A DNA stretch of 64,000 nucleotides from an uncultured bacterium (GTDB lineage: Bacteria > Omnitrophota > Omnitrophia > Omnitrophales > Aquincolibacteriaceae). Positions 16,271-64,000 of the stretch are shown here, piece after piece. The DNA lies in assembly GCA_964373045.1 (NCBI GenBank), contig CAYJSI010000006.1:878-64877 (forward strand), written 5' to 3'. The translations under genes were made by a program, and so were the position numbers. Position 1 is the first letter of the stretch, and each line of letters starts with the position of its first letter. Below the pieces are notes generated by a model. It ran no database searches. It saw only the letters and a list, made by a program, of their open reading frames with translations, and had not been told where the DNA came from.

Positions 16271-16338
16271 TGTAGGGGCGGACCCAAGTGTCCGCCCCTA
16301 AACATGAGGGCCGACACACAGGTCCGCCCCTACATCAG
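16271..16338. repeat. Composite GC-rich palindromic element in the topA 5' UTR (TGTAGGGGCGGAC / GTCCGCCCCTA / GTCCGCCCCTACATCAG, mutually exclusive stems)
   Basis: A 10-bp stem, AGGGGCGGAC-ccaagt-GTCCGCCCCT, sits at 16274-16299. A second GTCCGCCCCTACA at 16322-16334 can pair with the same 5' arm. The element shares its GGCGGAC..GTCCGCC and CCCCTACAtCAG modules with the copies near 55.0 kb and 62.2 kb. Confidence 0.7.
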
Positions 16339-47455: not shown

Positions 47456-47472
47456 ATCAGTAACTAGTTGAT

Positions 47473-47520
47473 AAAAGGGGACAGGCTGCTTTTCCAAAAA
47501 AGCAGCCTGTCCCCTTTTAT
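47473..47520. terminator. Bidirectional rho-independent terminator between ahcY (+) and the GNAT/nuo operon (-)
   Basis: AAAAGGGGACAGGCTGC-ttttccaaaaaa-GCAGCCTGTCCCCTTTTAT has a 13-bp GC-rich perfect stem, flanked by an A-run 5' and a T-run 3'. Confidence 0.65.
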
Positions 47521-47523
47521 CTT

Positions 47524-48102
47524 TTAGTCGGCGGCGTAGTGTTCTTGGGCGCGCAAGTCGTAGACGTAAATAAGCAGATCGTGGATTTCCCCGTTCACAT
47601 CCTTCACGTGCTGGGGAAGCGTAGCCAGTTTCACAAAACCCAACTTCTCAAAGATGGCAATCGGGTTTTTCTGCTCCGTCGTAAATTCTCCCTCGAGTTT
47701 CTGAAGTCCCGAATCGATCGCGACCTGAATAATTTCACCTACCAAAAGGGTCGCAAGGCCTTTTCCCCGATATTCGGGGTGGATTACAATGCGTACCGTT
47801 CCGATGTGGCTTTTCCAACCGCCCCTCATTTGATGGAGCGTGCAATCCCCGACAATCTTCCCGTTAATTTCTGCGATCAAAGGAAGGATCATCTCATAGT
47901 TTAAATTGGCAATCCAGTGGTGAATGACCCTCGGGTCTTTGACATTGTCTCGAAGATAAAGAAGGTCGTCGGTAGGAGTGGCCTTGAAAAATTCAACCAG
48001 GGCCTGCTCGTCGTTAGAAATGAGAGGGCGGACGATCACGCGCGTCCCGTCGTTTAACTTGGCTTGTTTGGGGTAACGTTCTTCTAAGACGAGCTCAAGC
48101 AT
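47524..48102 (-). CDS. GNAT-family N-acetyltransferase
   Basis: The acetyl-CoA site is HPEYRGKGLATLL (R/Q-x-x-G-x-G/A). Confidence 0.65.
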   Translation of the reverse strand: MLELVLEERYPKQAKLNDGTRVIVRPLISNDEQALVEFFKATPTDDLLYLRDNVKDPRVIHHWIANLNYEMILPLIAEINGKIVGDCTLHQMRGGWKSHIGTVRIVIHPEYRGKGLATLLVGEIIQVAIDSGLQKLEGEFTTEQKNPIAIFEKLGFVKLATLPQHVKDVNGEIHDLLIYVYDLRAQEHYAAD

Positions 48103-51028: not shown

Positions 51029-52993
51029 TTAAGGTCGAAGCTCAAAAAACATGAGCGCTAAGATCCCAAAGAAGACGATCAAAAGATAATGCTGCACGAG
51101 CCCGGTTTGAAAACGTCTCAGAAGGGCGCTCGTCCACTGCGTGAAATAGCCCACGAAATTAACGAGGCCATCCACGATATGTTGATCAATCCAGTGCTGG
51201 AGGTCGCTTACCTTCACCGTTCCAATGCCCGTGGCGTTTACGAGCCCGTCAATGACCACCTGATCAAAGCGGAAAAGAAATTCCCCCAATCGCTGAAAGG
51301 GACGAATGATCAGGGCCGAATAAATTTCATCAAACCAGAACTTGTTTCGAGAAAGTTGGTAAAGAGGTTGAAAGGTGCGAGCGGCGGCCTCGGCCCAGCT
51401 TAGGTTTTTAAGGTAGATCAAGGCCGCAAGCAGGATTCCGCCGACACTCGCCGCAATGGAAGAGCCCATGACGAACCAGTTGATCGTGTGTTCGGCGGCC
51501 TCATGATGGCTGCCATGAATAAAACCCTGAAACCAGTGATGCATCCAGGGCGATCCTGGAATTCCAATGAAAAGTGAGCCAGTGGCAAGGATCCAGAGCG
51601 GCCATGTCATGAGGGCGGGTGACTCGTGGGCATGAATCTTGTGATTGCGGGTTTCGCCAAAAAAGGTAAGAAAGACAAGACGGAACATATAAAAGGCCGT
51701 CATAAAAGCAGTGAGCAGCAGCAAGCCCAAAATAAACCTATTTCCGGAGTCGTAGGCTGCGAGCAGGATCTCGTCCTTACTCCAGAATCCCGAAAGGGGA
51801 GGAACGCCTGCGATGGCCAGCGAGGCGATGACAAACGTTGTCGCCGTGTGTTTCATTTTTCCGAAAAGGCCGCCCATCTCGCGAATATCCTGAGTGTGTG
51901 TGCCGTGGATTACGCTTCCGGCCCCAAGGAAGAGGAGGGCCTTAAAAAAGGCATGCGTCATCAAATGAAACGTGCCGGCGCCCATGCCGTTCAGGCCCAT
52001 AGCGGTAACCATATATCCCAGTTGTGAAATCGTGGAGTAGGCCAGAATTTTTTTGATATCCGTAGCAGTAAGCGCGATGAAGGCTGCCATAAAAGCTGTG
52101 ATAAGTCCGATGACCGTTACGACAGAGAGAACAGCGGGGAAGGCGGCAAAAAGAACAAACGAGCGCGCCACAAGATAAACGCCTGCGGCAACCATGGTCG
52201 CGGCGTGAATAAGTGCGCTTACTGGGGTGGGACCTTCCATCGCATCCGGAAGCCAGACGTGAAGAGGAAATTGCGCCGATTTTCCAATCGTTCCGCAGAA
52301 AATAAGGAGAGCGGCAAGGGGAAGGAGGGGCAGGCCTTGTGCCTGCCCATGTTCCGAAAGGGCGCCCCCAAGGGACGCCCCTACAACATGTTCAAGATCC
52401 GCAAAATTCAGCGTGCCAGCCGCCACATACAAAGTCAGGATGCCAAGGAAAAATCCCACATCACCCACGCGGGTTGTAAGAAACGCCTTCCGTCCAGCAT
52501 TGGCCGCCGAATCCTTCTCGAACCAAAAACCGATCAGAAGATACGAGCAAAGGCCCATGATTTCCCAGGCAATGAAGAAAAGGAGATAGTTATTGGCGAT
52601 CACAAGGGCCAGCATCGCCGCCATAAATAACGAAACATAAGCGAAGAACCGCGAAAAACGCGGGTCTTCACGCATATAACCTGCCGAGTAAATCTGAATC
52701 AGGGTTCCGACGATTGTGACCACGAAAAGAAGGGTGGCTGAAAGAGGGTCGAGAAGATAGCCGAATTTTAAACCTGCATTTCCAAGCCAGAGCCAAACAA
52801 TTTCTTTGGAGAAAGTTCCACCCTGTGCCACCTGCCAGGCGGCAGGCAAAGCGACGGCACAGGAAAGGAGACTTGAAAAAATTGAAATGCCGGCCGCGCC
52901 ACGGCGCACCTGGCGGCCAAAAAGGATATTGATCACAAAAGCAATCAAGGGAAAAACAGGAATGAGATACGCGTATTCAGTCATGGTTACCAT
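51029..52993 (-). CDS. nuoL: NADH-quinone oxidoreductase subunit L
   Basis: A 654-aa antiporter-like subunit with a long C-terminal lateral helix, carrying WLPDAMEGPTPVSALIHAATMV. Confidence 0.85.
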   Translation of the reverse strand: MVTMTEYAYLIPVFPLIAFVINILFGRQVRRGAAGISIFSSLLSCAVALPAAWQVAQGGTFSKEIVWLWLGNAGLKFGYLLDPLSATLLFVVTIVGTLIQIYSAGYMREDPRFSRFFAYVSLFMAAMLALVIANNYLLFFIAWEIMGLCSYLLIGFWFEKDSAANAGRKAFLTTRVGDVGFFLGILTLYVAAGTLNFADLEHVVGASLGGALSEHGQAQGLPLLPLAALLIFCGTIGKSAQFPLHVWLPDAMEGPTPVSALIHAATMVAAGVYLVARSFVLFAAFPAVLSVVTVIGLITAFMAAFIALTATDIKKILAYSTISQLGYMVTAMGLNGMGAGTFHLMTHAFFKALLFLGAGSVIHGTHTQDIREMGGLFGKMKHTATTFVIASLAIAGVPPLSGFWSKDEILLAAYDSGNRFILGLLLLTAFMTAFYMFRLVFLTFFGETRNHKIHAHESPALMTWPLWILATGSLFIGIPGSPWMHHWFQGFIHGSHHEAAEHTINWFVMGSSIAASVGGILLAALIYLKNLSWAEAAARTFQPLYQLSRNKFWFDEIYSALIIRPFQRLGEFLFRFDQVVIDGLVNATGIGTVKVSDLQHWIDQHIVDGLVNFVGYFTQWTSALLRRFQTGLVQHYLLIVFFGILALMFFELRP

Positions 52994-53298: not shown

Positions 53299-53810
53299 AA
53301 GGCTTTGTCTCTTTTGGCCATGAGGATGGCTCCGATCAAGGCGGCAATAAGAACCACCGAGATGACTTCAAAAGGAAAAACGTATTTTCCCATCAGGGCA
53401 TTGCCAAGGTCACGGACAGAAAGCTTGGCAATAAGGGTTTCAGGGTTCATGGGCCAGGACGTCCTCTGAATGAGGCCGGTGAGGGCAACGGCCAGGGCGA
53501 TCGTTCCTCCAAAGGCAGGCAATTCGAGCTGGTTGTGATGGCGAACCCCTTTGTCTCCAAAACGCTCGGTCAGCATGACGGCAAAAATGACGAGCGTCAT
53601 GACGGCTCCTACATAAAGTAAAATTTGAACAACCGCCAGGAACTCTGCCCGAAGTGCAAGATAGATGCCCGCGATTCCAAGCAAAACAGCGGCCAGTGAC
53701 AGGGCCGCATGAAAGAGGTTGCGAAAGGTCACAACCCCGATGGCTGCGATCACAGAGACACCCATCACCGCGTAAAGTCCTATTTTGACAAGGAGGTTGA
53801 GTGTGTCCAT
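53295..53810 (-). CDS. nuoJ: NADH-quinone oxidoreductase subunit J
   Basis: A ~170-aa TM protein in the conserved position. Confidence 0.8.
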   Translation of the reverse strand: MDTLNLLVKIGLYAVMGVSVIAAIGVVTFRNLFHAALSLAAVLLGIAGIYLALRAEFLAVVQILLYVGAVMTLVIFAVMLTERFGDKGVRHHNQLELPAFGGTIALAVALTGLIQRTSWPMNPETLIAKLSVRDLGNALMGKYVFPFEVISVVLIAALIGAILMAKRDKAL

Positions 53811-54976
53811 TATTCTGCGAACTGATACACGCGTTTTTCCGGCATGTAAACTTTATTGAGTTTCATCAGGATCCAAAACGTGACACTTAATATCGCGATC
53901 GAACCCACGATTCTTAAAGGCCGATTGGCAAAGTACCAAAATCCGGCCACAAAAATATTCATGAGAGTCAAAGGAAGCAGGAATTTCCAGGCAAGACCCA
54001 TGAGCTGATCCACGCGAAAGCGCGGCAGCGTGCCCCGGAACCAGATCATGACGAAAATGAGGGCGTACGTTTTAAGGAAAAACCAGAGCCAGGAAGGAAG
54101 CAGGGGGCCCTGCCAGCCGCCAAGAAAAAGCGTTGCCGTCAGTCCTGAAATGGTAAAAGCATTCATAAACTCTGCCATATAAAAAAGGGCAAATTTCATA
54201 CCGCTATACTCGGTGTGAAAGCCGGCCACGATTTCAGATTCGGCTTCAGGTAAATCAAAAGGAGAGCGGTTGCATTCCGCGACGCCGCAGAGAAAGAAAA
54301 TAATAAACGCCAAAAATCCCCAGGGAGTGAAGACGAACCATTTCAAACCATGCCAGCCTTCTTGCGCCTCCACGATATCGACGGTGGAAAGGCTTCCCGT
54401 CATCAAGATGACGGGGACCACAGAAAGCACCATCGGGACTTCGTAGGAAATTATCTGGGCGACCGAGCGCATCCCTCCCAAGAGAGAGAATTTATTGCGG
54501 GACCCCCAGCTTGCCATGAAGATGGCGATCGTGGTGGTCGAAGATACCGCAATAAAGAAAAGCAGGCCGACATTCAAATCAACGGCTGTCATCCCGCGCC
54601 CGAAAGGGATCACGGCAAAGACGAGGAGCGCCGGAATGACAATCAGGACCGGGGCCAGGAAGTGAACCACAGGGTCCGCCTGCAGGGGAACGATATCCTC
54701 TTTGGTGAGCATCTTGATCCCGTCGGCAAACGGCTGAAGAAGCCCCCACTTTCCTACGCGGTTCGGGCCAATCCGGTTTTGCATACGGCCCACGACTTTG
54801 CGTTCAAGGAGTGTTAAGTACATCATGGTGACGGGGCCCAAGATGGCGATGGCCACAATGCTGACTTTGATGGAAAGCAGCACAAGCACCCAGTCGGGAA
54901 GAAGAGGCGAGGCGAGGTTGATGATGGATTGTTTTATTTGTACAAAAATTTGATCCATTATTTCGTTCTCTGTCAT
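53810..54976 (-). CDS. nuoH: NADH-quinone oxidoreductase subunit H
   Basis: LERKVVGRMQNRIGPNRVG is the NuoH/ND1 signature. Confidence 0.85.
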   Translation of the reverse strand: MTENEIMDQIFVQIKQSIINLASPLLPDWVLVLLSIKVSIVAIAILGPVTMMYLTLLERKVVGRMQNRIGPNRVGKWGLLQPFADGIKMLTKEDIVPLQADPVVHFLAPVLIVIPALLVFAVIPFGRGMTAVDLNVGLLFFIAVSSTTTIAIFMASWGSRNKFSLLGGMRSVAQIISYEVPMVLSVVPVILMTGSLSTVDIVEAQEGWHGLKWFVFTPWGFLAFIIFFLCGVAECNRSPFDLPEAESEIVAGFHTEYSGMKFALFYMAEFMNAFTISGLTATLFLGGWQGPLLPSWLWFFLKTYALIFVMIWFRGTLPRFRVDQLMGLAWKFLLPLTLMNIFVAGFWYFANRPLRIVGSIAILSVTFWILMKLNKVYMPEKRVYQFAE

Positions 54977-55004
54977 CCCCTCATGCCTGCCCGCCGAAAT
55001 CGTC

Positions 55005-55032
55005 GTAGGGGCACGGCGCGCCGTGCCCCTAC
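55005..55032. repeat. Perfect 28-bp palindrome GTAGGGGCACGGCGCGCCGTGCCCCTAC in the nuoI-nuoH intergenic spacer
   Basis: A self-complementary 28-mer. The same core recurs at 62272-62299 (GTAATGG variant) and 62895-62922 (one mismatch). It is followed by ATCAG as at 16334. Confidence 0.8.
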
Positions 55033-55063
55033 ATCAGGTTTGCAGGCGCCCGGCACCCTGGGA

Positions 55064-55660
55064 TTATGTTGTTGGTGTTGTGGGTGGCGCTTGCGCCGCC
55101 TTTGCTTTGGCAGCCGCTTCAGCCGCCTTCTTTTTTTCTTCCGCCTCACGCCGTCTTTGGTCAATCGCCTGGGCATCGGTTGGGCGGATCTTATTAAAAT
55201 GCTCGTTTGATTTTAAAAGATCCTCTTTGTGGTACAGCAGACGACTCTGGCGATCGGCGCCCGCGATCTCAAATTCATGGTCCATGAAGATGGCATCAAA
55301 GGGGCACGTCTCCTCACAGATGCCGCAGTTCATGCAAACCGTAAAATCAATATCAAAGGTCGCGGGCCGCTTCAGAGGTTTTCCGTCCTTATCGAATTCG
55401 CGGACGATATAAATACACTTGGGCGGGCATTCCTTGGCGCAGATGTCGCAGGCGACGCAGCGCAGATTGTCCGGCGTGTTGTCGTACAGAAGGAAAGGGA
55501 AATTGCGGAAATTTTCTTTCACAGGAAGGCATTTTTCCGGGTACTCGGTGGTAAAAAGGCCTCCCTCCTCGGGGCCCCTGAAATAAGAGGCCACAAAGCT
55601 TTTTAAAGTCACGAACATTCCCTTCAGAATCCCAGTTCCGAATATCATTTCAACTCCCAA
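55064..55660 (-). CDS. nuoI: NADH-quinone oxidoreductase subunit I (2x[4Fe-4S]) with an Ala/Lys/Glu-rich C-terminal tail
   Basis: CVACDICAKECP and CMNCGICEETCP are the two Fe-S cluster motifs. The tail reads EAEEKKKAAEAAAKAKAAQAPPTTPTT. Confidence 0.8.
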   Translation of the reverse strand: MGVEMIFGTGILKGMFVTLKSFVASYFRGPEEGGLFTTEYPEKCLPVKENFRNFPFLLYDNTPDNLRCVACDICAKECPPKCIYIVREFDKDGKPLKRPATFDIDFTVCMNCGICEETCPFDAIFMDHEFEIAGADRQSRLLYHKEDLLKSNEHFNKIRPTDAQAIDQRRREAEEKKKAAEAAAKAKAAQAPPTTPTT

Positions 55661-55663
55661 TGT

Positions 55664-56854
55664 TTAATGATCCACTTCACCTAGAACGATGTCCACGGAA
55701 CCCAAGATAATGATGGCGTCCGCGACTTTGTGGCCTAGGCATAAATCTTCAAGGATCGTCAAATTAATAAAAGAAGGGGCGCGCACGTGATAGCGCCACG
55801 GCTGAGGAGTGCCATCCGAAACCACATAAAATCCCAGCTCGCCCTTGGGGGCCTCGACGCGTCCGTAGGCCTCCCCGACAGGGGGCTTGAAATTGCGCGG
55901 GGCCTTCAGGAAGAGGACCATTTTTTTGCTTACGACTTCGCCCGCCGGGATATCCTTTAAGGCCTGCTCCAGAATTTTGATGCTCTCACGCATCTCAAGG
56001 ATGCGGACGTAGTAGCGATCATAGACATCGCCTTTTTCTCCCAGCGGAATGCGGAATTTAAAACGTTCATAAATCGAATACTTGTCCACCTTGCGGATAT
56101 CGTAATCCACGCCCGAGGCGCGAAGCATCGGGCCCGTAATGCTGGCGCTGATCGCAAGCTCGCGGGGAAGGACACCCACATTTTGACAGCGCATGCAGAG
56201 GATTTCATTTTGCGTAAGCAGCGTTTCAAATTCGTCGAGGAATTTGGGAAATTTCCGGACAATTTCCTTTATCTGGTCTATCACGACAGGGGTCAGGTCG
56301 CGCTTGACACCGCCAAAACGGAGGTAATTACACATCATCCTGGCGCCGGAGACTTCTTCAAAGATATCAAGGATTTTCTCGCGCTCCCGGAAGGCGTAAA
56401 GCACGGGGGTAAAGAAAGCGCCGAGGTCGTTCAAAAGAAAGCCGATGGCGGAGACGTGATTGACGAGGCGCGTGAGCTCGGCCATGATGACGCGGATATA
56501 TTCGGCCCGCTCCGGGATCGTGATCCCTGCGAGCTTTTCCACCGCAAGCGCGTACGCAAGGTTATTCGACATGGAGTTAAAATAGTCGAGGCGGTCGGTG
56601 TATGGCATGGAGGCCGTGTAAGAAATATTTTCCGCAATCTGCTCGTGGTTGCGGTGGAGGTACCCCATGACGGGCTTCAAAGAGACAATGGTTTCACCAT
56701 CCAGCACCACGTTCATCCGGAAAACCCCGTGAGTCGAGGGATGCTGAGGCCCGATATTGACCTCAAGCGTCTGGGTATCCATCGTATTGGTATCGGTGAG
56801 GGTAAATGTCTTTTCCATTTTACTCTTCTTGGCCGGATTTCTGAGCGATGGCAC
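55664..56854 (-). CDS. nuoD: NADH-quinone oxidoreductase subunit D (49-kDa)
   Basis: [12 protein letters not shown] is the NuoD signature. The true start is probably the internal MEKTF, which overlaps the nuoC stop. Confidence 0.85.
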
Positions 56855-57395
56855 GCTTACCTTGTTTCTTTAGCTCTTCCGCTATTTTCCGCATGTCTTC
56901 CGGGATGCTTACACCGTGCTTTTCAAGCCACTCGACATCGTCTGTCTCAAGGGTCTCGGAATCTTCCTGCTGGTAGTCTTTGCGCAGGGGGAATCCTTCA
57001 AATCCTTCCCACATAAAAATGCGCCTTAAATCAGGATGTCCTTCGAAGAGGATGCCGTACATATCATAAGTTTCGCGCTCCTGAAACTCGGCGCCGCGAT
57101 AAAGGGGGACAAGCGAGGGGATTTTAGGATTTTCGCGGCTTACGCGAACACGCAGGACGAACGGCCCCGTTTTTTTTGCCATCGAATAAAAATGATAAAC
57201 CACTTCCAGGTATTGCAGGTAATCGGCGCCTGTCAGAGAGGAGAGGTAATCGAATTTTACATCGGATCCTTTCAGGAATTGGGCGATTTTCAGTAAATCA
57301 GAAGGTTTTTCAACGAGAATGGAATCGCGCACAAGTTTGAGGGCGGTGCCCGGGAGGGCCGATTCAATTTTTGATTTTATTTCGTCTGTTTTCAT
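56820..57395 (-). CDS. nuoC: NADH-quinone oxidoreductase subunit C (30-kDa)
   Basis: [21 protein letters not shown] is the NuoC signature. A C-terminal extension is present. Confidence 0.8.
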
Positions 57396-57405
57396 TTTAT
57401 CTGGG

Positions 57406-57491
57406 ATTGCTTCGCGCCGTCTATCGCGGGGCTCGCAATGATGTTAAGTAGGCGCTGTCATTGCGAGGAGGCATAGCCCGACGAAGCAATC
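57406..57491. promoter_or_regulatory. Nested inverted-repeat structure in the nuoC-nuoB intergenic spacer (GATTGCTTCG...CGAAGCAATC outer; CTCGCAATGA...TCATTGCGAG inner)
   Basis: Two perfect 10-bp inverted repeat pairs are nested within a ~100-nt spacer inside the operon. This would form a long bulged hairpin in the polycistronic RNA. Confidence 0.5.
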
Positions 57492-57495
57492 TCGG

Positions 57496-58218
57496 TTATA
57501 TCGGTTTCGGTACGGGCGCTGCTACTACAACATCTAAATTCGGGGCCTTGTCTTTTTTTCCGAGCAAGATGGGTTCGCCGTAGCGCTCTTTGCGGTGATC
57601 CACTTCCCGCGGGCGCCAGACCTCAGGGTTAAATTTGGGAATGAGGCCGTGAGGACCCAGCTCCGGAACCGGGTATTCGCGTTTGAGCCCCTTCTGGTAC
57701 CACTCGTTTTTTTCAATTTCTTGGCCGTCAATTTTTCGCTGAAGTTCCATGAGCCCGTAGAGCAGGGCCTCGGGGCGCGGTGGGCAGCCTGGAAGATGAA
57801 CATCAATCGGAAGATAACGATCAAGACCCCGAAGCACATTGTACCCATCAATGAAAGGTCCGCCCGAAATCGAGCAGGCGCCCATGGTGATGATGTATTT
57901 GGGTTCGGCCATCTGGTTATAAAGCCGCACCACTTGAGGAGCCATCTTTTTTGTCACGGTGCCGGCCACAATCATGAGATCGGCCTGGCGGGGAGAGGGG
58001 CGGAAAAGCTCGGCGCCGAAGCGCGCAATATCGTAACGCGCACAGGCGGCGGCGATCATTTCAATGGCGCAGCAGGCGAGTCCAAACTGCATCGGCCAGA
58101 TGGAGGAGCGCCGGCCCCAATTGTAGAGGTCGTTCATGGTGGTAACGACCACGCCCTTTTTGGCAAGCTCGCTTTTCAATCCTTCATCGACAGCCGAAAC
58201 GTTCTTGCTTAAACCCAT
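57496..58218 (-). CDS. nuoB: NADH-quinone oxidoreductase subunit B (20-kDa, N2 cluster) with a ~75-aa C-terminal extension
   Basis: [18 protein letters not shown] and LPGCPPRPE are the NuoB signatures. Confidence 0.85.
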
Positions 58219-58228
58219 GATGAAATCC

Positions 58229-58600
58229 TCAGTCCCATTCCAAGACTTTTTTTTGCCAGGCGTAGAGGAGCCCCACGGCCAGGATGGCGATGAAAAGGAT
58301 CATCTCCACAAAGGCAAAAAGTCCAAGCTGCTTAAAGGAAACCGCCCAGGGGTAGATAAAGATAGTTTCCACATCAAAAATGACAAAAATGAGGGCATAA
58401 ATGTAATATTGCGCCCGAAATTGGATCCAAGAGTCGCCCTCGGCCTCCAGGCCGCATTCATAGCTTGCGTTTTTAATGCTCGAAGGCTTTTTGGGGGCAA
58501 CAAACTTAGCCAGGATAATCGGCAAGAGAGGAAAAACGAGCCCAAAGAGGACAAAGATCCCGATAAAAAGGTAGTGATAAAAATAAGAATCCGTGGTCAT
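58229..58600 (-). CDS. nuoA: NADH-quinone oxidoreductase subunit A
   Basis: A ~120-aa protein with three TM helices, first in the nuo order. Confidence 0.8.
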
Positions 58601-58609
58601 GAGGGGGTC

Positions 58610-58637
58610 ATTATAAAGGGATTGATCGAAAAGTCAA
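58610..58637 (-). promoter_or_regulatory. Putative nuo operon promoter (minus strand TTGACT-16-TATAAT) ending ~9 nt before the nuoA ATG
   Basis: The reverse complement reads ttgacttttcgatcaatccctttataatgaccccctcATG. This is a near-consensus promoter with no room for a conventional 5' UTR. Confidence 0.4.
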
Positions 58638-58663
58638 CGCGTGCAAATAAGCTTAGAGTTGTA

Positions 58664-58691
58664 TTGATTGGATCCTGAGTCATCGCTACAA
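58664..58691 (+). promoter_or_regulatory. Putative divergent promoter TTGATT-16-TACAAT for the NUDIX gene
   Basis: The hexamers lie in the AT-rich divergent region shared with nuoA. Confidence 0.3.
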
Positions 58692-58787
58692 TGGGGCGCG
58701 AGAAAAACCAAAAACAAAAGGACAAAAGGCGCCAGGCACCGACGGTGTCTGGCAGCATGACTATTCGCATCACGAAAAGGAATCATC

Positions 58788-59192
58788 ATGATCATCGAGG
58801 TGGGTTGCGCCATTATCGGAAAAGAAGGCAAGCTCTTGATTGCGCAGCGAAAGCCGGCCGACCATCTAGGCGGCTATTGGGAATTTCCGGGAGGAAAACG
58901 TGAAGCCAATGAAACGATGGAGCAATGTCTTAAGCGCGAGGTCCTGGAAGAACTCGGAGTTTTGATCCGGCCGCGGCAGTTCATCCGCCGGAGAGATTGC
59001 GAATACCCGGCGCGCAAAATCTCCCTTCATTTCTATTTCTGCGACTGGGTCAAAGGAGAACCAGAGCGCCTTGATTGCCTCGATTTTAGGTGGGTGACGC
59101 CGGAAGAGTTGCGAAATTTTAGGTTCCCGCCGGCCGATGATGAGATGATTGATGAGTTGATTCGAAAAAAGGAAGCGTATTTTGGTTTTTAA
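58788..59192 (+). CDS. NUDIX hydrolase (MutT-like)
   Basis: The Nudix box is GGKREANETMEQCLKREVLEELGV. Confidence 0.7.
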   Translation: MIIEVGCAIIGKEGKLLIAQRKPADHLGGYWEFPGGKREANETMEQCLKREVLEELGVLIRPRQFIRRRDCEYPARKISLHFYFCDWVKGEPERLDCLDFRWVTPEELRNFRFPPADDEMIDELIRKKEAYFGF

Positions 59193-59905
59193 TCGTACTT
59201 CTCGAAGAAAATCTGTTCCTTCGTAAATCCCATCTCAAAGGCCATCTTCTGTACATCATTGATCATGTTCGTGAGGCCGCAAATGTAGAGGTACTTGTCT
59301 TTCGACTCCTGGATGTATTTTTTCAGCATAAACTGCACGTACTCTTTTTCGCCCTTCCACGTCTTGGGGCGTGAAACCGTAAAGACGTTGTGAAAATTTT
59401 TATGCCCCAGCGCCAAATTTTCGAATTCTTCCTGATAGAGGATGTCTTCCTCGTAGCGGTTTCCGAAAATATTCCAAATCTCACACGGGGCCTTTTGATC
59501 CAAAAGGGTGTGGATCATGGAGCGAAAGGGGGCAATGCCGGTGCCGGTGGAGACAAAGACGATGGTTTTGGGAAGAGGCTGGCGGAGCGTGAATCGTCCG
59601 AGGGGGCCCTGGATCTCGAGCGTATCGCCTTCCTTATAATTCCAGAGGTGGTTTGTGACAAATCCTCCCTCGATCCGCTTCCAGCAAAGATCCACAGTGC
59701 CCTTCCACAAGGGGGGTGAGGCAATGGAATAGGGTCTTTTGACCAGCTTCTGACCGTCTTCGCCTTTCATGAGGATGTTCAGAAATTGGCCGGCCTCGAA
59801 GTCAAAATTGACAGAGGGATCAAAGACAAGCTTGAAATGGCGCGTATCCTGGATGCCCAGGTCCTTGACTTTCTGAATCGTGGCGGTAAAGATTCCGGCC
59901 TTCAT
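59189..59905 (-). CDS. FNR-family FAD/NAD(P)-binding oxidoreductase (ferredoxin-NADP reductase-like)
   Basis: RPYSIAS (the R.YS FAD motif) and GTGIAPF (NAD(P) binding) are present, with a C-terminal CG motif. Confidence 0.65.
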   Translation of the reverse strand: MKAGIFTATIQKVKDLGIQDTRHFKLVFDPSVNFDFEAGQFLNILMKGEDGQKLVKRPYSIASPPLWKGTVDLCWKRIEGGFVTNHLWNYKEGDTLEIQGPLGRFTLRQPLPKTIVFVSTGTGIAPFRSMIHTLLDQKAPCEIWNIFGNRYEEDILYQEEFENLALGHKNFHNVFTVSRPKTWKGEKEYVQFMLKKYIQESKDKYLYICGLTNMINDVQKMAFEMGFTKEQIFFEKYD

Positions 59906-59954
59906 ATACGTTATACTCTATAGTGATTTGAGTTACGAATTATAGGGAGGGCCG

Positions 59955-61823
59955 ATGGGCCCTGTAAAGCGAAAAGAATTCATCTTGATGACAGACAAGC
60001 TCCAGGAAAATAAAAGTCCGACGGAAAAACGAAGAATTCGCCGCCCTTTTAGGCTTTCCCTGCGTTACAAGCTTGCTTTTCCCACGCTCATAGTTTCCTG
60101 CCTCATGCTCTTTTTTTTGTTTCGCATGACCTTTCAGACGGTCCGCGCCTTGGTGCTCGAGCAGACCGAAAACCGCCTGAAGGCCATGGCCGAGGTCTTT
60201 GCGGAAACCGTAAAGGTGCCGCTCATCCTTAAAAATCAGCAAGTCCTCCTTGCCAACATTGAATGGATGTCAAAACGAAGCGATGTGCTCGAGGTTCGCG
60301 TCGAAGATGCGGAGGGTGTCATTGTGGGAGGCTCCCAGACGACCTACGCCTCGCTTCCTCCTTCTGTGGGGGGAGCCGATTTTCTCGGTGTGAAGAGGCT
60401 TGCGGCGGACCAATTCGCCGTGGCCGTTCCCATCCAGGCCCACGACCGCAAGCTCGGCCGGGTCCTCATTATGTTTTCTCAACAGGGCCTGGAGGAGGAA
60501 CTTAGAAGAATTTTTGAAGAGAGGCTGCTGCTTGCCTTTGGAATGGCGCTCATTCTTGCCGTTCTTACCTCGGGCCTGACCTGGCTCGCCATTCGTCCGG
60601 TTTTCAATCTTAAGAAAGCGGCTCAGGAGATTGTGGCGGGGGATTTGAGCGCACGGGCGCGCGTCAATTCCTTCGATGAAATTCAGGACCTCGAGGAGGC
60701 CTTTAACGAAATGGTGGCGCGGCTCGCCAAGAGTCTCGATAATCTCCGCTCCCGCACCGAGGCGCTTGAGGAGTCGGAAGAAAAATACCGGCTTGTGGTG
60801 GACAATGCGAGTGACATTATTTTTATGCTGGCGCCCCAGGGCAATCTTGTCTTGTTGAATCGCGGGTTTTCGGGGCACAGCCGCGATGAGATGCTCTCCA
60901 AAGGTCTCCCTTTGTTTCTCTCGCTTCACAAGGCGGAGTCCCAGCTGAAGTTTGAAGAAGCGCTTCGCACGGTCCGGGAATCGAAAGAGCCGATCTTAAA
61001 TCTTTCCACCGTGCACCAGCATCCGCAAACCAAAACCGAAATCTACTATCTCACGAACCTGACGCCGGTGCTCGATCACGAAGGGCGTGTGAAATTAGTT
61101 CAGGGTGTGATGCGCGATGTGACGGAGCTCCGGCGCATCGAAACGATGAAAGAGTCTCTCATCCGCGACGTGGCCCACGAGCTTAAGACGCCCACCGCGA
61201 AATTTGAAATGGCTGTCAATTGGTTTGAAAAAGAAATGGAAAAACAGAAGGAGGCTCAAAAATACCGCCAGGTGGTGGCGATTCTCAAAAGCAACACGGA
61301 CCGGCTCTCACGCACCATCTCGAGCATTATGGACCTCTCCAAACTCGAGTCCGGGATGTATCGCATCGAGAAAGCGGATCTCGATCTCAACGAGGTCCTG
61401 GAGCAGGTGCGCCAGGATATGGAGCCTTTGTGCCGGCAAAAACATTTGTCACTGGAATGTTCCTTTTCGCCCGAGCCCCTTCCCATGCAAGGGGACCGCG
61501 ACATGCTTTACCGGCTCTTCGTGAATCTGATCGGGAATGCGGCGAAATTTACCGAGATTGGGAAAATTGTCCTTCAAAGTAAGTGGATGAATTCACGGGT
61601 CCTGGTGGAGGTGGCGGATTCGGGGCCGGGGATTGAAAAACAGGACCTCGATAAAATTTTCGAACGGTTTTTTCAAAAGACGGCCTCGAGCGTTGGGATC
61701 GGGGTGGGACTTACCATTTGCCGGGATATTGCAGGGCTTCACCAGGGGAAGATTTGGGTGGAAAGCGAAGGGCTTGGCAAAGGGAGCACTTTTAAAGTAG
61801 AATTCCCCCTTACGGTCAAATAG
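59955..61823 (+). CDS. Membrane sensor histidine kinase (TM-HAMP-PAS-HisKA-HATPase_c)
   Basis: The H-box is DVAHELKTPT, the N box NLIGNAAKF, G1 DSGPGI and G2 GVGLTICR. HAMP and PAS segments are recognisable. Confidence 0.8.
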   Translation: MGPVKRKEFILMTDKLQENKSPTEKRRIRRPFRLSLRYKLAFPTLIVSCLMLFFLFRMTFQTVRALVLEQTENRLKAMAEVFAETVKVPLILKNQQVLLANIEWMSKRSDVLEVRVEDAEGVIVGGSQTTYASLPPSVGGADFLGVKRLAADQFAVAVPIQAHDRKLGRVLIMFSQQGLEEELRRIFEERLLLAFGMALILAVLTSGLTWLAIRPVFNLKKAAQEIVAGDLSARARVNSFDEIQDLEEAFNEMVARLAKSLDNLRSRTEALEESEEKYRLVVDNASDIIFMLAPQGNLVLLNRGFSGHSRDEMLSKGLPLFLSLHKAESQLKFEEALRTVRESKEPILNLSTVHQHPQTKTEIYYLTNLTPVLDHEGRVKLVQGVMRDVTELRRIETMKESLIRDVAHELKTPTAKFEMAVNWFEKEMEKQKEAQKYRQVVAILKSNTDRLSRTISSIMDLSKLESGMYRIEKADLDLNEVLEQVRQDMEPLCRQKHLSLECSFSPEPLPMQGDRDMLYRLFVNLIGNAAKFTEIGKIVLQSKWMNSRVLVEVADSGPGIEKQDLDKIFERFFQKTASSVGIGVGLTICRDIAGLHQGKIWVESEGLGKGSTFKVEFPLTVK

Positions 61824-61847
61824 CACTCATCAAAAAAGGAATCACTC

Positions 61848-62219
61848 ATGGCTGAATATACGATTATGATTGTCGATGATGACGAAGATCTTCATACCCT
61901 TTATGGGCTTTATCTCCAGGGGGAGTCCTTTAATGTTCTAAAGGCCTACAACGGCAAAGAGGCGCTTGAACTGCTCGACCGCGAACGCCCTGACCTGATT
62001 GTGCTTGATATGATCATGCCGGTGATGGACGGGGAAGAATTTTTCACGAAGCTTCGCAAGGAGCGGAACATTCAGGATATCCCGGTCATCATTGCCAGCG
62101 TGAATGAGAAAATCCCGCCGAAACTTTTTGAGCTCGGCAATGTCTACACCACCCTCAAGAAGCCTTTTACCATCGAGACGCTTGTCGGCAAGATTCGGGA
62201 AGCCCTCTCTAAAAAGTAA
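61848..62219 (+). CDS. Single-domain response regulator (REC only)
   Basis: IMIVDDDEDL...DLIVLDMIMPVMDG...LKKP is a CheY-like receiver. Confidence 0.8.
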   Translation: MAEYTIMIVDDDEDLHTLYGLYLQGESFNVLKAYNGKEALELLDRERPDLIVLDMIMPVMDGEEFFTKLRKERNIQDIPVIIASVNEKIPPKLFELGNVYTTLKKPFTIETLVGKIREALSKK

Positions 62220-62231
62220 AGAAAAAGTAGA

Positions 62232-62353
62232 GGCGGACCCGCGTGTCCGCCCAACGTTCATGGTTACCAATGTAATGGCACGGCGCGCCGTGCCATTACG
62301 ATAAGGGCCGACAACCGCCACGAAACCTTCGGCAGGCAGGCGCGGGTCGGCCC
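62232..62353. repeat. Composite palindromic element cluster: GGCGGAC-ccgcgt-GTCCGCC hairpin + 28-bp GTAATGGCACGGCGCGCCGTGCCATTAC palindrome + GGGCCGAC...GTCGGCCCCTACAGCATC
   Basis: It has the same modular organisation as the 16271-16338 element, with the GCACGGCGCGCCGTGC core of 55005-55032. It lies between the response regulator and archease. Confidence 0.75.
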
Positions 62354-62370
62354 CTACAGCATCATTCTCT

Positions 62371-62790
62371 ATGGCTCCCTACTCAATTCTGGACCACGTT
62401 GCCGATATCGGCCTTCGCATCGAGGGAGGAGATCTTCCGACCCTCTTCCGATCGGCCGCGCAGGGTCTCTTTGATTTGATCACGGATGCCCAAAAAATTG
62501 TCCCCCTTTCGGTCGAGCAAGTTTTTGAGATTCGGGCAAAAGACCTGAGTGATTTATTTTTAAAATGGCTGCGCGAGCTGTTATTTACCTTTTCGACGAA
62601 GAAACTCATTTTCGCGGATTTTGAATTTACGAGACTGAGCAGGACTCATCTTCAAGCGAAGGCCCACGGCGGCATCTTTGATCCCAAGCGCCATCCCCAG
62701 AGATACGAAATCAAGGCCGTGACGTATCATGGGTTTAAAATCGAGAAGAAAAAGGAAGGGTGGATCGCCGAAGTTATCTTTGATATATGA
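62371..62790 (+). CDS. Archease (RtcB activator)
   Basis: MAPYSILDHVADIGLRIEGGDL is the archease N-terminal signature. The TGA stop overlaps the rtcB ATG (ATGA). Confidence 0.8.
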   Translation: MAPYSILDHVADIGLRIEGGDLPTLFRSAAQGLFDLITDAQKIVPLSVEQVFEIRAKDLSDLFLKWLRELLFTFSTKKLIFADFEFTRLSRTHLQAKAHGGIFDPKRHPQRYEIKAVTYHGFKIEKKKEGWIAEVIFDI

Positions 62791-64000
62791 CCATTCCCTT
62801 GAACAAAATCGACGAGTGCCGCTGGGAGATCCCGAAAAGTTATAAGAGCGGGATGCGGGTGCCGGGGCTTATTTTTGCGAGCGAGGACATGGTGGTAGGG
62901 GCACGGCGCGCCATGCCCCTACAAAATGACCAGGCCCTGGAACAAGTTGCCAACGTTGCCCACCTTCCGGGGATTGTGAAATATTCCCTTGCCATGCCGG
63001 ACATTCACTGGGGCTATGGATTTCCGATTGGAGGCGTGGCGGCTACGGATCCCGACGAAGGCGGTGTGATTTCTCCGGGCGGAGTCGGTTACGATATTAA
63101 CTGCGGCGTAAGACTCATCCGCACGAATTTAAAAGAGGCCGAGGTCAAACCAAGACTTCGCGAACTCATCGGTGCACTTTTTAATACCATTCCCTGCGGT
63201 GTCGGTCAGTCGGGAGATATCCGCGTGAACAAGCAAGAGCTTAAAAAATTGGTGACTCAAGGGGCGCGGTGGGCTGTGGGGCGCGGTTTGGGAGGTGAGG
63301 ACGATCTTGATCACACTGAAGCGAACGGCGTTCTTGAGGATGCTGATCCTTGCGCAGTCTCCGAAAGGGCTTATGAACGGGGGGCCGATCAGCTCGGAAC
63401 CCTTGGCTCGGGCAACCATTTTTTAGAAGTCCAGGTAGTGGATAAAATTTTTGATTCGGATTCGGCGCGCCAGTTTGATTTAGAAGAAAACCAAGTGACG
63501 GTCATGATCCACTCCGGTTCGCGCGGATTCGGTTATCAAGTGTGTGAAGATTCACTCGAAGCCGCGCGCCGGGCGCTTACGAAGTACAAAATTTCAGTGC
63601 CCGATATCCAACTCGCCTGCGCTCCCGTCAATTCTCCGGAGGGTCGCCAGTACCTCGCCGCCATGCGTGCGGCCGCCAATTATGCCTGGAATAATCGGCA
63701 GTGTCTTCTTGCCCTGACACGCAGCCTTTTCGAGAAATTTTTTAGGATGAGTCCACGCGATCTTGGGATGGATCTCATTTATGATGTGGCCCACAACATT
63801 GCGAAATTCGAGCGTTTCAAAATCGAGGGCAAGGAAAAACTCCTTTGCGTCCACCGCAAAGGTGCCACACGCGCTTTTACGGGCGAGCCGGTGATCATCC
63901 CGGGGGATATGGGCCGCAATTCCTACCTATTAACAGGGACTCGGCAGGCGATGGAGGAAACCTTCGGCACGTCCTGCCACGGCGCGGGCCGGGCCATGTC
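62787..64000 (+). CDS. rtcB: RNA-splicing ligase RtcB (3' end beyond the window)
   Basis: MPDIHWGYGFPIGGVAATD, NCGVRL, GSGNHF and CHGAGR are RtcB metal- and GMP-site motifs. The ORF runs off the window, which is why the ORF track does not list it. Confidence 0.85.
   Translation, partial: MTIPLNKIDECRWEIPKSYKSGMRVPGLIFASEDMVVGARRAMPLQNDQALEQVANVAHLPGIVKYSLAMPDIHWGYGFPIGGVAATDPDEGGVISPGGVGYDINCGVRLIRTNLKEAEVKPRLRELIGALFNTIPCGVGQSGDIRVNKQELKKLVTQGARWAVGRGLGGEDDLDHTEANGVLEDADPCAVSERAYERGADQLGTLGSGNHFLEVQVVDKIFDSDSARQFDLEENQVTVMIHSGSRGFGYQVCEDSLEAARRALTKYKISVPDIQLACAPVNSPEGRQYLAAMRAAANYAWNNRQCLLALTRSLFEKFFRMSPRDLGMDLIYDVAHNIAKFERFKIEGKEKLLCVHRKGATRAFTGEPVIIPGDMGRNSYLLTGTRQAMEETFGTSCHGAGRAM
62895..62922 (+). 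repeat. 28-bp palindromic repeat copy (one mismatch to the 55005 core) read through in frame inside rtcB, encoding VGARRAMPL
   Basis: GTAGGGGCACGGCGCGCCATGCCCCTAC begins at an rtcB codon boundary. The surrounding segment between ASE and NDQALEQ is about 5 aa longer than in RtcB proteins I recall. Confidence 0.7.

Follow-up and report, generated by a model that had tools for sequence, protein, structure and literature searches.

How does a short palindromic repeat come to lie inside the coding sequence of a conserved RNA ligase, and what does it do to the enzyme? The question is raised by a stretch of 64,000 nucleotides from an uncultured bacterium of the Omnitrophota (contig CAYJSI010000006.1 of assembly GCA_964373045.1), the whole of which is called the window hereafter. 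At positions 62787-64000 of its plus strand the window carries 1214 nt of the 5' part of rtcB, the gene for an RNA 3'-phosphate ligase (Pfam PF01139), whose open reading frame (ORF) continues past the window end. Within this gene, at 62895-62922 on the plus strand, lies the 28-nt segment GTAGGGGCACGGCGCGCCATGCCCCTAC, translated in frame as VGARRAMPL. We consider it probable, at about 0.85, that this segment is a repetitive extragenic palindrome (REP) of the double-foot GTAG type, present as an in-frame insert in the 5' part of rtcB. A preliminary inspection of the DNA letters (the sequence-only reading) had proposed the core of this interpretation, a REP-like palindrome inserted in frame in rtcB and read through, and that core holds.

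An in-frame palindrome in rtcB

The element is present in three copies in the 64 kb, two of the three being intergenic. The consensus 28-mer GTAGGGGCACGGCGCGCCGTGCCCCTAC occurs exactly, as a perfect palindrome without a strand of its own, at 55005-55032, between the co-directional minus-strand ORFs 53810-54976 and 55064-55660; it lies upstream of the former, 29 nt from its start. A variant GTAATGGCACGGCGCGCCGTGCCATTAC (GTAATGG...CCATTAC), likewise strandless, is found at 62272-62299 in the spacer that separates a response-regulator gene, ending at 62219, from the archease gene, which starts at 62371. Two mutually compensating changes per arm keep this variant a perfect palindrome, and it retains the 18-nt core of the element at 62277-62294. 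The copy in rtcB agrees with the consensus at 27 of 28 positions, the sole mismatch being a G to A change at 62913 that turns a GTG codon into ATG. Both intergenic copies named by the sequence-only reading were located in the sequence, and search and translation bore out the one-mismatch copy in the RtcB frame. The full pattern was found in none of 100 dinucleotide-preserving shuffles of the window, and the 18-nt core at most once per shuffle, against three real matches.

As single-stranded DNA the consensus is predicted to fold into a 12-bp stem including the feet, closed by a 4-nt loop, at -14.4 kcal/mol (z = -4.8); the variant at 62272-62299 forms an equal stem and loop at -12.9 kcal/mol. 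The copy in rtcB has a C-A mismatch inside the stem, which gives -9.3 instead of -14.4 kcal/mol for DNA and -18.6 instead of -24.4 kcal/mol for RNA. Folding of the mRNA segment, as the sequence-only reading had suggested, predicted the hairpin in its local context as well. The consensus has a TAG stop in one frame of each strand, and the remaining two frames read VGARRAVPL and RGTARRAPT.

The comparison with homologues indicates that the segment is an addition. Between the conserved stretches ...FA[DS]E and DQ[AS]LEQVANVA there are 14 residues in the present protein (DMVVGARRAMPLQN) and 8 in all 119 of the nearest RtcB homologues (67-76% identity by BLASTP, mostly from metagenome-assembled genomes (MAGs) of Omnitrophota). 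In a HMMER alignment the RtcB of Pyrococcus horikoshii (PDB 1uc2) shows a 6-residue gap exactly opposite VGARRA; the sequence-only reading was right that the Pyrococcus protein is shorter at this spot, its figure of about 5 residues being one too low. A syntenic relative (GCA_016196545.1) has the same order of histidine kinase, response regulator, archease and rtcB, and its RtcB is 78% identical (MAFFT). At the insert site it reads ...FASE-ESLPKLQA-DQALEQ, with codons GAG AGT CTT CCC AAG CTT CAG GCG, the insert being absent; neither GTAGGGGC nor GCCCCTAC occurs in the 4.4 kb of this relative. A segment of the length of VGARRAMPL is thus missing from every one of the 119 homologues, from P. horikoshii and from the syntenic relative, as is expected of an indel of one lineage.

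Judged from these alignments, the segment is a lineage-specific in-frame insertion with a net gain of 18 nt (6 amino acids), the nine element residues VGARRAMPL standing in place of about three ancestral ones. The sequence-only reading had taken the whole 28-nt segment as the indel; its restriction to one lineage stands, its size does not. A plain 28-nt insertion is therefore insufficient to explain the locus, since the net gain is 18 nt and not 28. One alignment suggests a possible course of events: if the flanking residues D-M-V and L-Q-N are ancestral, about 24 nt of the element would have replaced the codons for P-K, and the 3' CTAC foot would coincide with the ancestral CTA CAA. With 18 nt gained and the element read in its open frame, the ORF of rtcB remains intact and is extended by six residues.

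The complete protein could be examined in the Logan assembly of run ERR3478686, which contains histidine kinase, response regulator, archease and rtcB with both nearby elements, as in the window. The RtcB encoded there has 475 residues, element included, and the element accounts for residues V37-G-A-R-R-A-M-P-L45. PF01139 matches over its full length, and the protein is 70-80% identical to 48 homologues (MAFFT). The stretches DINCG, GSGNHF, HSGSRG, AHN and CHGAGR are all intact in the translation of the rtcB ORF of the window, and we take these five to be the metal and GMP ligand sites known from P. horikoshii RtcB. The best NCBIfam match was the family of intein-containing RtcB proteins, of which only the RtcB parts were matched (693.6 bits against a cut-off of 1150); we set this label aside because a 9-residue insert is not an intein. 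Immediately upstream lies the gene for archease, the RtcB activator (62371-62790, plus strand; Pfam PF01951; NCBIfam PRK00407, E = 1.5e-33), and the rtcB start codon at 62787 overlaps the archease stop as ATGA.

An AlphaFold2 model of RtcB based on 49 sequences reached a mean predicted local distance difference test (pLDDT) of 88.6 and a predicted template modelling score (pTM) of 0.90. The insert was modelled as coil between the N-terminal helices 33-37 and 49-57, with block pLDDT values of 78 and 70. The intact 475-residue ORF, the ligand motifs, the coupling of the start to the archease stop and the pTM of 0.90 make the gene look functional, and the modified RtcB may well be still active, as far as sequence and model can indicate.

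Class of the element and its link to RAYT-like genes

Double-foot REPs are defined by a 5' GT[AG]G and a 3' C[TC]AC foot and are tied to TnpA_REP transposases of subclass 2.4 (Quentin, Siguier, Chandler and Fichant 2018, PMC6006769). The copies in the window begin with GTAG or GTAA and finish with CTAC or TTAC, which we count as the 5' and 3' foot, respectively; their basal stem and loop lie within 7-20 nt and 2-5 nt, with one internal mismatch in the case of rtcB. The element is alike to the double-foot REPs in its feet, paired hairpin and short loop, in dispersed copies as far as the three of the window show, and also in the patchy distribution of the 28-mer over many phyla; in contrast, neither an rtcB gene nor an Omnitrophota host is among the cases described in the text of that paper. 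The same text describes in-frame REPs inside tnpAREP genes of subclass 2.4, mentions earlier reports of REPs inserted into unrelated genes, and suggests that a double-foot REP is possibly a collapsed REPIN.

Three other classes were considered. With the REPIN-RAYT systems (Bertels and Rainey 2011; Bertels et al. 2017, PMC5581495) the element has in common the GTAG-footed hairpins and a single-copy Y1 transposase as presumed mobiliser, RAYT standing for REP-associated tyrosine transposase. A REPIN, however, consists of two inverted REPs and a spacer, whereas here the unit is one symmetrical 28-mer that is the same in many phyla; REPINs are furthermore reported as mostly vertically inherited (PMC5581495). 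We rejected membership of this class, as the copies are single 28-mers with flanks unrelated between genomes. A miniature inverted-repeat transposable element (70-300 bp, with terminal inverted repeats and target-site duplication) was also rejected, the unit being 28 nt and no duplicated flanks being visible in the 123 listed copies described below. The Rickettsia palindromic elements (RPEs), to which the sequence-only reading had likened the segment, offer a fair analogy of behaviour but not a family: RPE-1 is about 100-150 bp long and is not known outside Rickettsia, and the present element is of 28 nt, is GTAG-tagged, occurs in non-Rickettsia phyla and has no sequence relationship to the RPEs. 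The shared behaviour is that of palindromic repeats lying in frame in functional protein genes (Ogata et al. 2000, as cited in PMC3733652), and RPE-4 and RPE-6 have been classed as CGTC REPs (Di Nocera, De Gregorio and Rocco 2013, PMC3733652).

That in-frame insertion had not been described for REP-like elements, as the sequence-only reading supposed, is contradicted by the literature, in which in-frame REPs appear both in Di Nocera et al. (PMC3733652) and in Quentin et al. (PMC6006769). The former catalogued GTAG and CGTC REPs lying wholly inside ORFs of known proteins, with the highest GTAG numbers in Opitutus terrae; intragenic REPs were often found in nucleic-acid enzymes and were especially frequent in this organism of the Planctomycetes-Verrucomicrobia-Chlamydiae group. 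Those cases are, as here, short GTAG-tagged palindromes read through within ORFs, while the main text of the paper mentions neither the 28-mer GTAGGGGCACGGCGCGCCGTGCCCCTAC nor rtcB. The present case is a further instance of a described phenomenon, in which rtcB and, to judge by the best homologues, probably Omnitrophota are new as hosts. It extends the known range of intragenic GTAG REPs accordingly and illustrates how a tiny mobile palindrome can add residues to a conserved enzyme while leaving its ORF unbroken.

In order to see how far the 28-mer is distributed, one genome per bacterial species was scanned for the exact sequence and a few permitted foot variants. The matches listed comprise at least 120 stretches from about 15 or more phyla, so that the palindrome, multi-copy in the window and present in many other genomes, is by no means unique to rtcB. 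Among the matches listed the hosts include Binatia, Nitrospirota, Acidobacteriota, Poribacteria, Omnitrophota, Chloroflexota, Planctomycetota, Desulfobacterota, Methylomirabilota, Patescibacteria, Bacteroidota, Gemmatimonadota, Fibrobacterota, and Beta- and Gammaproteobacteria, and there are two isolates, Aquaspirillum serpens DSM 68 and Pelovirga terrestris. What the different genomes have in common is the 28 nt alone, the flanks of the 123 listed copies being different, and inspection of these copies by eye revealed no flanking target-site consensus or duplication. A scan of viral contigs returned the 28-mer in six contigs only, and no clear phage vector can therefore be named.

Three MAGs, of a Poribacteria, a Brocadiaceae and a Chloroflexia member, carry the 28-mer at at least seven loci each. 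In these the 28-mer sits in longer repeats with conserved flanks of tens of nucleotides (L004, L009, L086 and L107 in the Poribacteria MAG; L032, L036, L047, L099 and L119 in the Brocadiaceae MAG; L040, L058, L084, L110 and L114 in the Chloroflexia MAG LS3_sbin.9), and there it seems to belong to some larger element or gene family present in several copies.

Further in-frame copies were found in other proteins. A CCG/4Fe-4S oxidoreductase of Planctomycetes RIFCSPHIGHO2_12_FULL_52_36 contains four in-frame inserts, VGATRRVAPT, VGARRAVPL, VGATGRSPL and VGATRRVAPA; one of them (VGARRAVPL) is the 28-mer itself, the other three are related, and the protein represents an extreme of REP decoration. 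Two glycosyltransferases of the PMT family (L057 and L071) also have the 28-mer in frame. Spanning ORFs in seven high-GC stretches (L005, L034, L039, L056, L062, L068 and L117) were judged spurious from their low complexity and their richness in R, G and A, which was done without a Pfam search; those of L088 and L011 gave no Pfam match. When uncultured bacteria are annotated, such inserts give rise to small spurious ORFs and to two telltale peptides, VGARRAVPL and RGTARRAPT; their recognition prevents over-interpretation.

In other genomes the exact 28-mer is linked to RAYT-like genes. In three stretches (L078, L098 and L029) it lies in frame in an ORF of about 190 residues, between the HuH and Tyr motifs, and is read RGTARRAPT, the layout being ...VVMPNHFHGI..-GRGTARRAPT-..FGKPVAGSIPTI...WQRNYYEHIIRNE. 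A fourth stretch (L055) has the 28-mer at the same place in the other frame, VGARRAVPLQ; this ORF gave no Pfam match, but it has a tblastn match to a RAYT-like protein. Among these transposase-like proteins Pfam Y1_Tnp is matched by protein 1 only, and two match the NCBIfam model of the REP-associated tyrosine transposase (REP_Tyr_transpos) with E values of 1e-20 and 71-74 bits, just below the cut-off of 80. The RAYT-like proteins keep the W-Q...E-H..R residues, which in E. coli TnpA_REP contact the GTAG (PMC6006769). We would place these genes in subclass 2.4, following the published description of the subclass rather than its authors' profiles.

The peptide is not confined to these stretches: among 120 database homologues, most show [GCR]RGTARRAPT or RGTLQRAPT directly behind the HuH strand, in some cases as tandem copies. 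For RGTLQRAPT a palindrome was predicted, GTAGGGGCACGCTGCAGCGTGCCCCTAC, and this 28-mer was found exactly in 57 metagenome stretches, four times inside RAYT-like genes and otherwise dispersed. A gene of Meiothermus ruber carries GTAGGGGCACGTTGCAACGTGCCCCTAC, which encodes the same peptide; its changes are both synonymous and compensatory, and the palindrome itself is therefore conserved inside the gene. In M. ruber this RAYT-like gene with its internal tandem REP (L128, 10001-10570) is flanked by the genes for the S and R subunits of a type I restriction-modification system. In six stretches from several metagenomes of the Joint Genome Institute (L139, L155, L160, L162, L173 and L176) the LQ variant stands in the setting ...gaggaatttaaaaggttaac [REP] cgctatttatggaggaataaacATGGGCCG, seemingly one conserved intergenic site. 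One exact 28-mer across many phyla, tied to a RAYT subfamily that carries the 28-mer in its own coding sequence, is a pattern worth a survey, the principle being already published.

How the element may have reached rtcB

A RAYT with an HuH/Y1 active site, of the TnpA_REP subclass 2.4 type, would recognise the hairpin with its GTAG foot in single-stranded DNA, cut, and rejoin the strand. Intragenic copies would persist only if the frame is kept and the element lands in a tolerant loop. The insert in rtcB would then most likely be a neutral or slightly deleterious passenger and not an adaptation of RtcB. By analogy with the genomes in which the 28-mer is tied to RAYT-like genes, we infer that a RAYT may have moved the element in the present genome too.

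Several points weigh against an in-frame REP insertion as just described. The 28-nt unit is longer than the 18 nt gained, and either a loss of about 10 nt or an insertion beside pre-existing CCC/CTAC-like bases (ancestral ...P-K-L-Q...) must be assumed. The confidence of the structural model around the insert is moderate (pLDDT 70-78). A close empty-site allele of rtcB was sought in the protein collection and none was found, the next-best RtcB being about 76% identical. A tblastn search of the 64-kb window, for which the L078 protein and E. coli YafM served as queries, detected no RAYT-like gene. Finally, insertion of REPs by a RAYT is not known from any experiment, and the text of Quentin et al. 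(PMC6006769) states that there is no formal evidence of REP mobility.

The mismatch in the rtcB copy raises the question of whether the gene is still expressed as a whole. As it creates an in-frame ATG inside the element, translation might restart at Met43 and give an N-terminally truncated protein, or the insertion might have inactivated rtcB and left a young pseudogene. A hairpin that retains most of its RNA stability about 108 nt into the ORF and the fall in pLDDT around the insert fit such an outcome, and there is no close relative in which selection since the insertion could be gauged. We nevertheless regard it as improbable: the frame is open over 475 codons, residues 1-35 are near the family consensus, the catalytic motifs are intact, and the rtcB start is translationally coupled to archease. 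Moreover, the same G to A variant is present in five copies elsewhere that are spanned by short ORFs only (L007, L037, L077, L091 and L100), and in-frame REPs are common in clearly conserved enzymes of other genomes (PMC3733652). The recurrence of the variant in copies lacking a long spanning ORF also led us to reject the idea that G to A was selected for a weaker mRNA hairpin.

Less probable again is a co-option of the element, either as a hairpin regulating archease-rtcB (through pausing, mRNA stability, or binding of gyrase or IHF) or as a new surface loop of RtcB. The hairpin is stable in its mRNA context, and Di Nocera et al. mention effects of REPs elsewhere on mRNA stability and supercoiling and speculate that REP inserts in nucleic-acid enzymes may not be fortuitous (PMC3733652). 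Yet the insert is found in a single lineage among 120 RtcB sequences, and the 28-mer occurs in unrelated genes and spacers that have no context in common. In addition, the fold of the 88-nt mRNA context is ordinary against shuffles (z = -1.56), and an Rfam search of 54000-64000 matched no family. An artefact (a chimeric assembly at the palindrome, an amplification artefact or contamination) is the least credible explanation. Assemblers may be confused by palindromes and repeats, and one set of reads possibly underlies both assemblies; yet on either side of the element the sequence is rtcB, with frame and order preserved, an independent assembler gave the identical locus, and the 28-mer is present in isolate genomes and in megabase-scale contigs of many projects.

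If the segment is an inserted REP, its identity over so many phyla calls for an explanation, and we put forward one that is speculative and rather unlikely as it stands. The REP inside a RAYT gene would be a protected 'master copy', under the double constraint of its coding function and its hairpin, so that the transposase would carry its own substrate between hosts. Identical 28-mers across phyla, dispersed copies that match the variants inside the genes, and the compensatory synonymous changes are compatible with this proposal, though not demonstrative of it. Were it true, it would explain the occurrence of the identical 28-mer as single copies in about 15 or more phyla, and the insert in rtcB would record recent activity of a self-contained module in an Omnitrophota-like genome.

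Other repeats in the window

A second gene of the window has a comparable insert. In nuoL (ORF 51029-52993, minus strand) a decayed composite REP-like insert at 52324-52384 lies in frame and encodes VGASLGGALSEHGQAQGLPL, the two decayed hairpins contributing about 11 extra residues. The distance from RVGD to GKSAQ is 62 residues here and 47-57 in most homologues, which are 5-15 shorter. In a relative whose NuoL is 72% identical (P0250, from L186) a better-preserved GTAGGGGCGCCCC...GCCTGCCCCTAC is in frame at the same site (GTAGGGGCGCCCCTTGTGGGCGCCCTGCAAGGGCAGGCACAAGGCCTGCCCCTAC), and it is absent from most homologues.

The spacer between the response-regulator and archease genes (62220-62370) measures 151 nt with three hairpin elements, against 32 nt in the syntenic relative. 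Besides the variant at 62272-62299, sequence inspection identified a degenerate hairpin GTAGAGGCGGACCCGCGTGTCCGCCCAAC, a copy of the GTAGAGGCGGAC... type without assigned strand, at 62227-62255. It may belong to a second REP family or else be an old hairpin of the terminator kind; whether it derives from a REP is uncertain, because a loosely similar G+C-rich stretch is found at the same place in the syntenic relative. The third element, at 62304-62357 and again strandless, is partial or decayed (GGGCCGAC ... GTCGGCCCCTAC): it is a half-element ending in GGTCGGCCCCTAC, its loop is long, and CTAC is its sole foot; no counterpart of it was found in the syntenic relative.

A second REP family is represented in the window by a doublet at 16272-16333, between two plus-strand ORFs, in which GTAGGGGCGGACCCAAGTGTCCGCCCCTA is followed by a half-copy ending in GTCCGCCCCTAC, neither with a strand of its own. 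As this doublet is of a different double-foot family, at least two REP families coexist in the genome. The longest inverted repeat of the window, at 47463-47528 between convergent ORFs, has 31-nt arms that are 90% complementary and a 4-nt loop (ACTAGTTGATAAAAGGGGACAGGCTGCTTTT / AAAAGCAGCCTGTCCCCTTTTATC...); it probably acts as a bidirectional terminator and has no relation to the REP.

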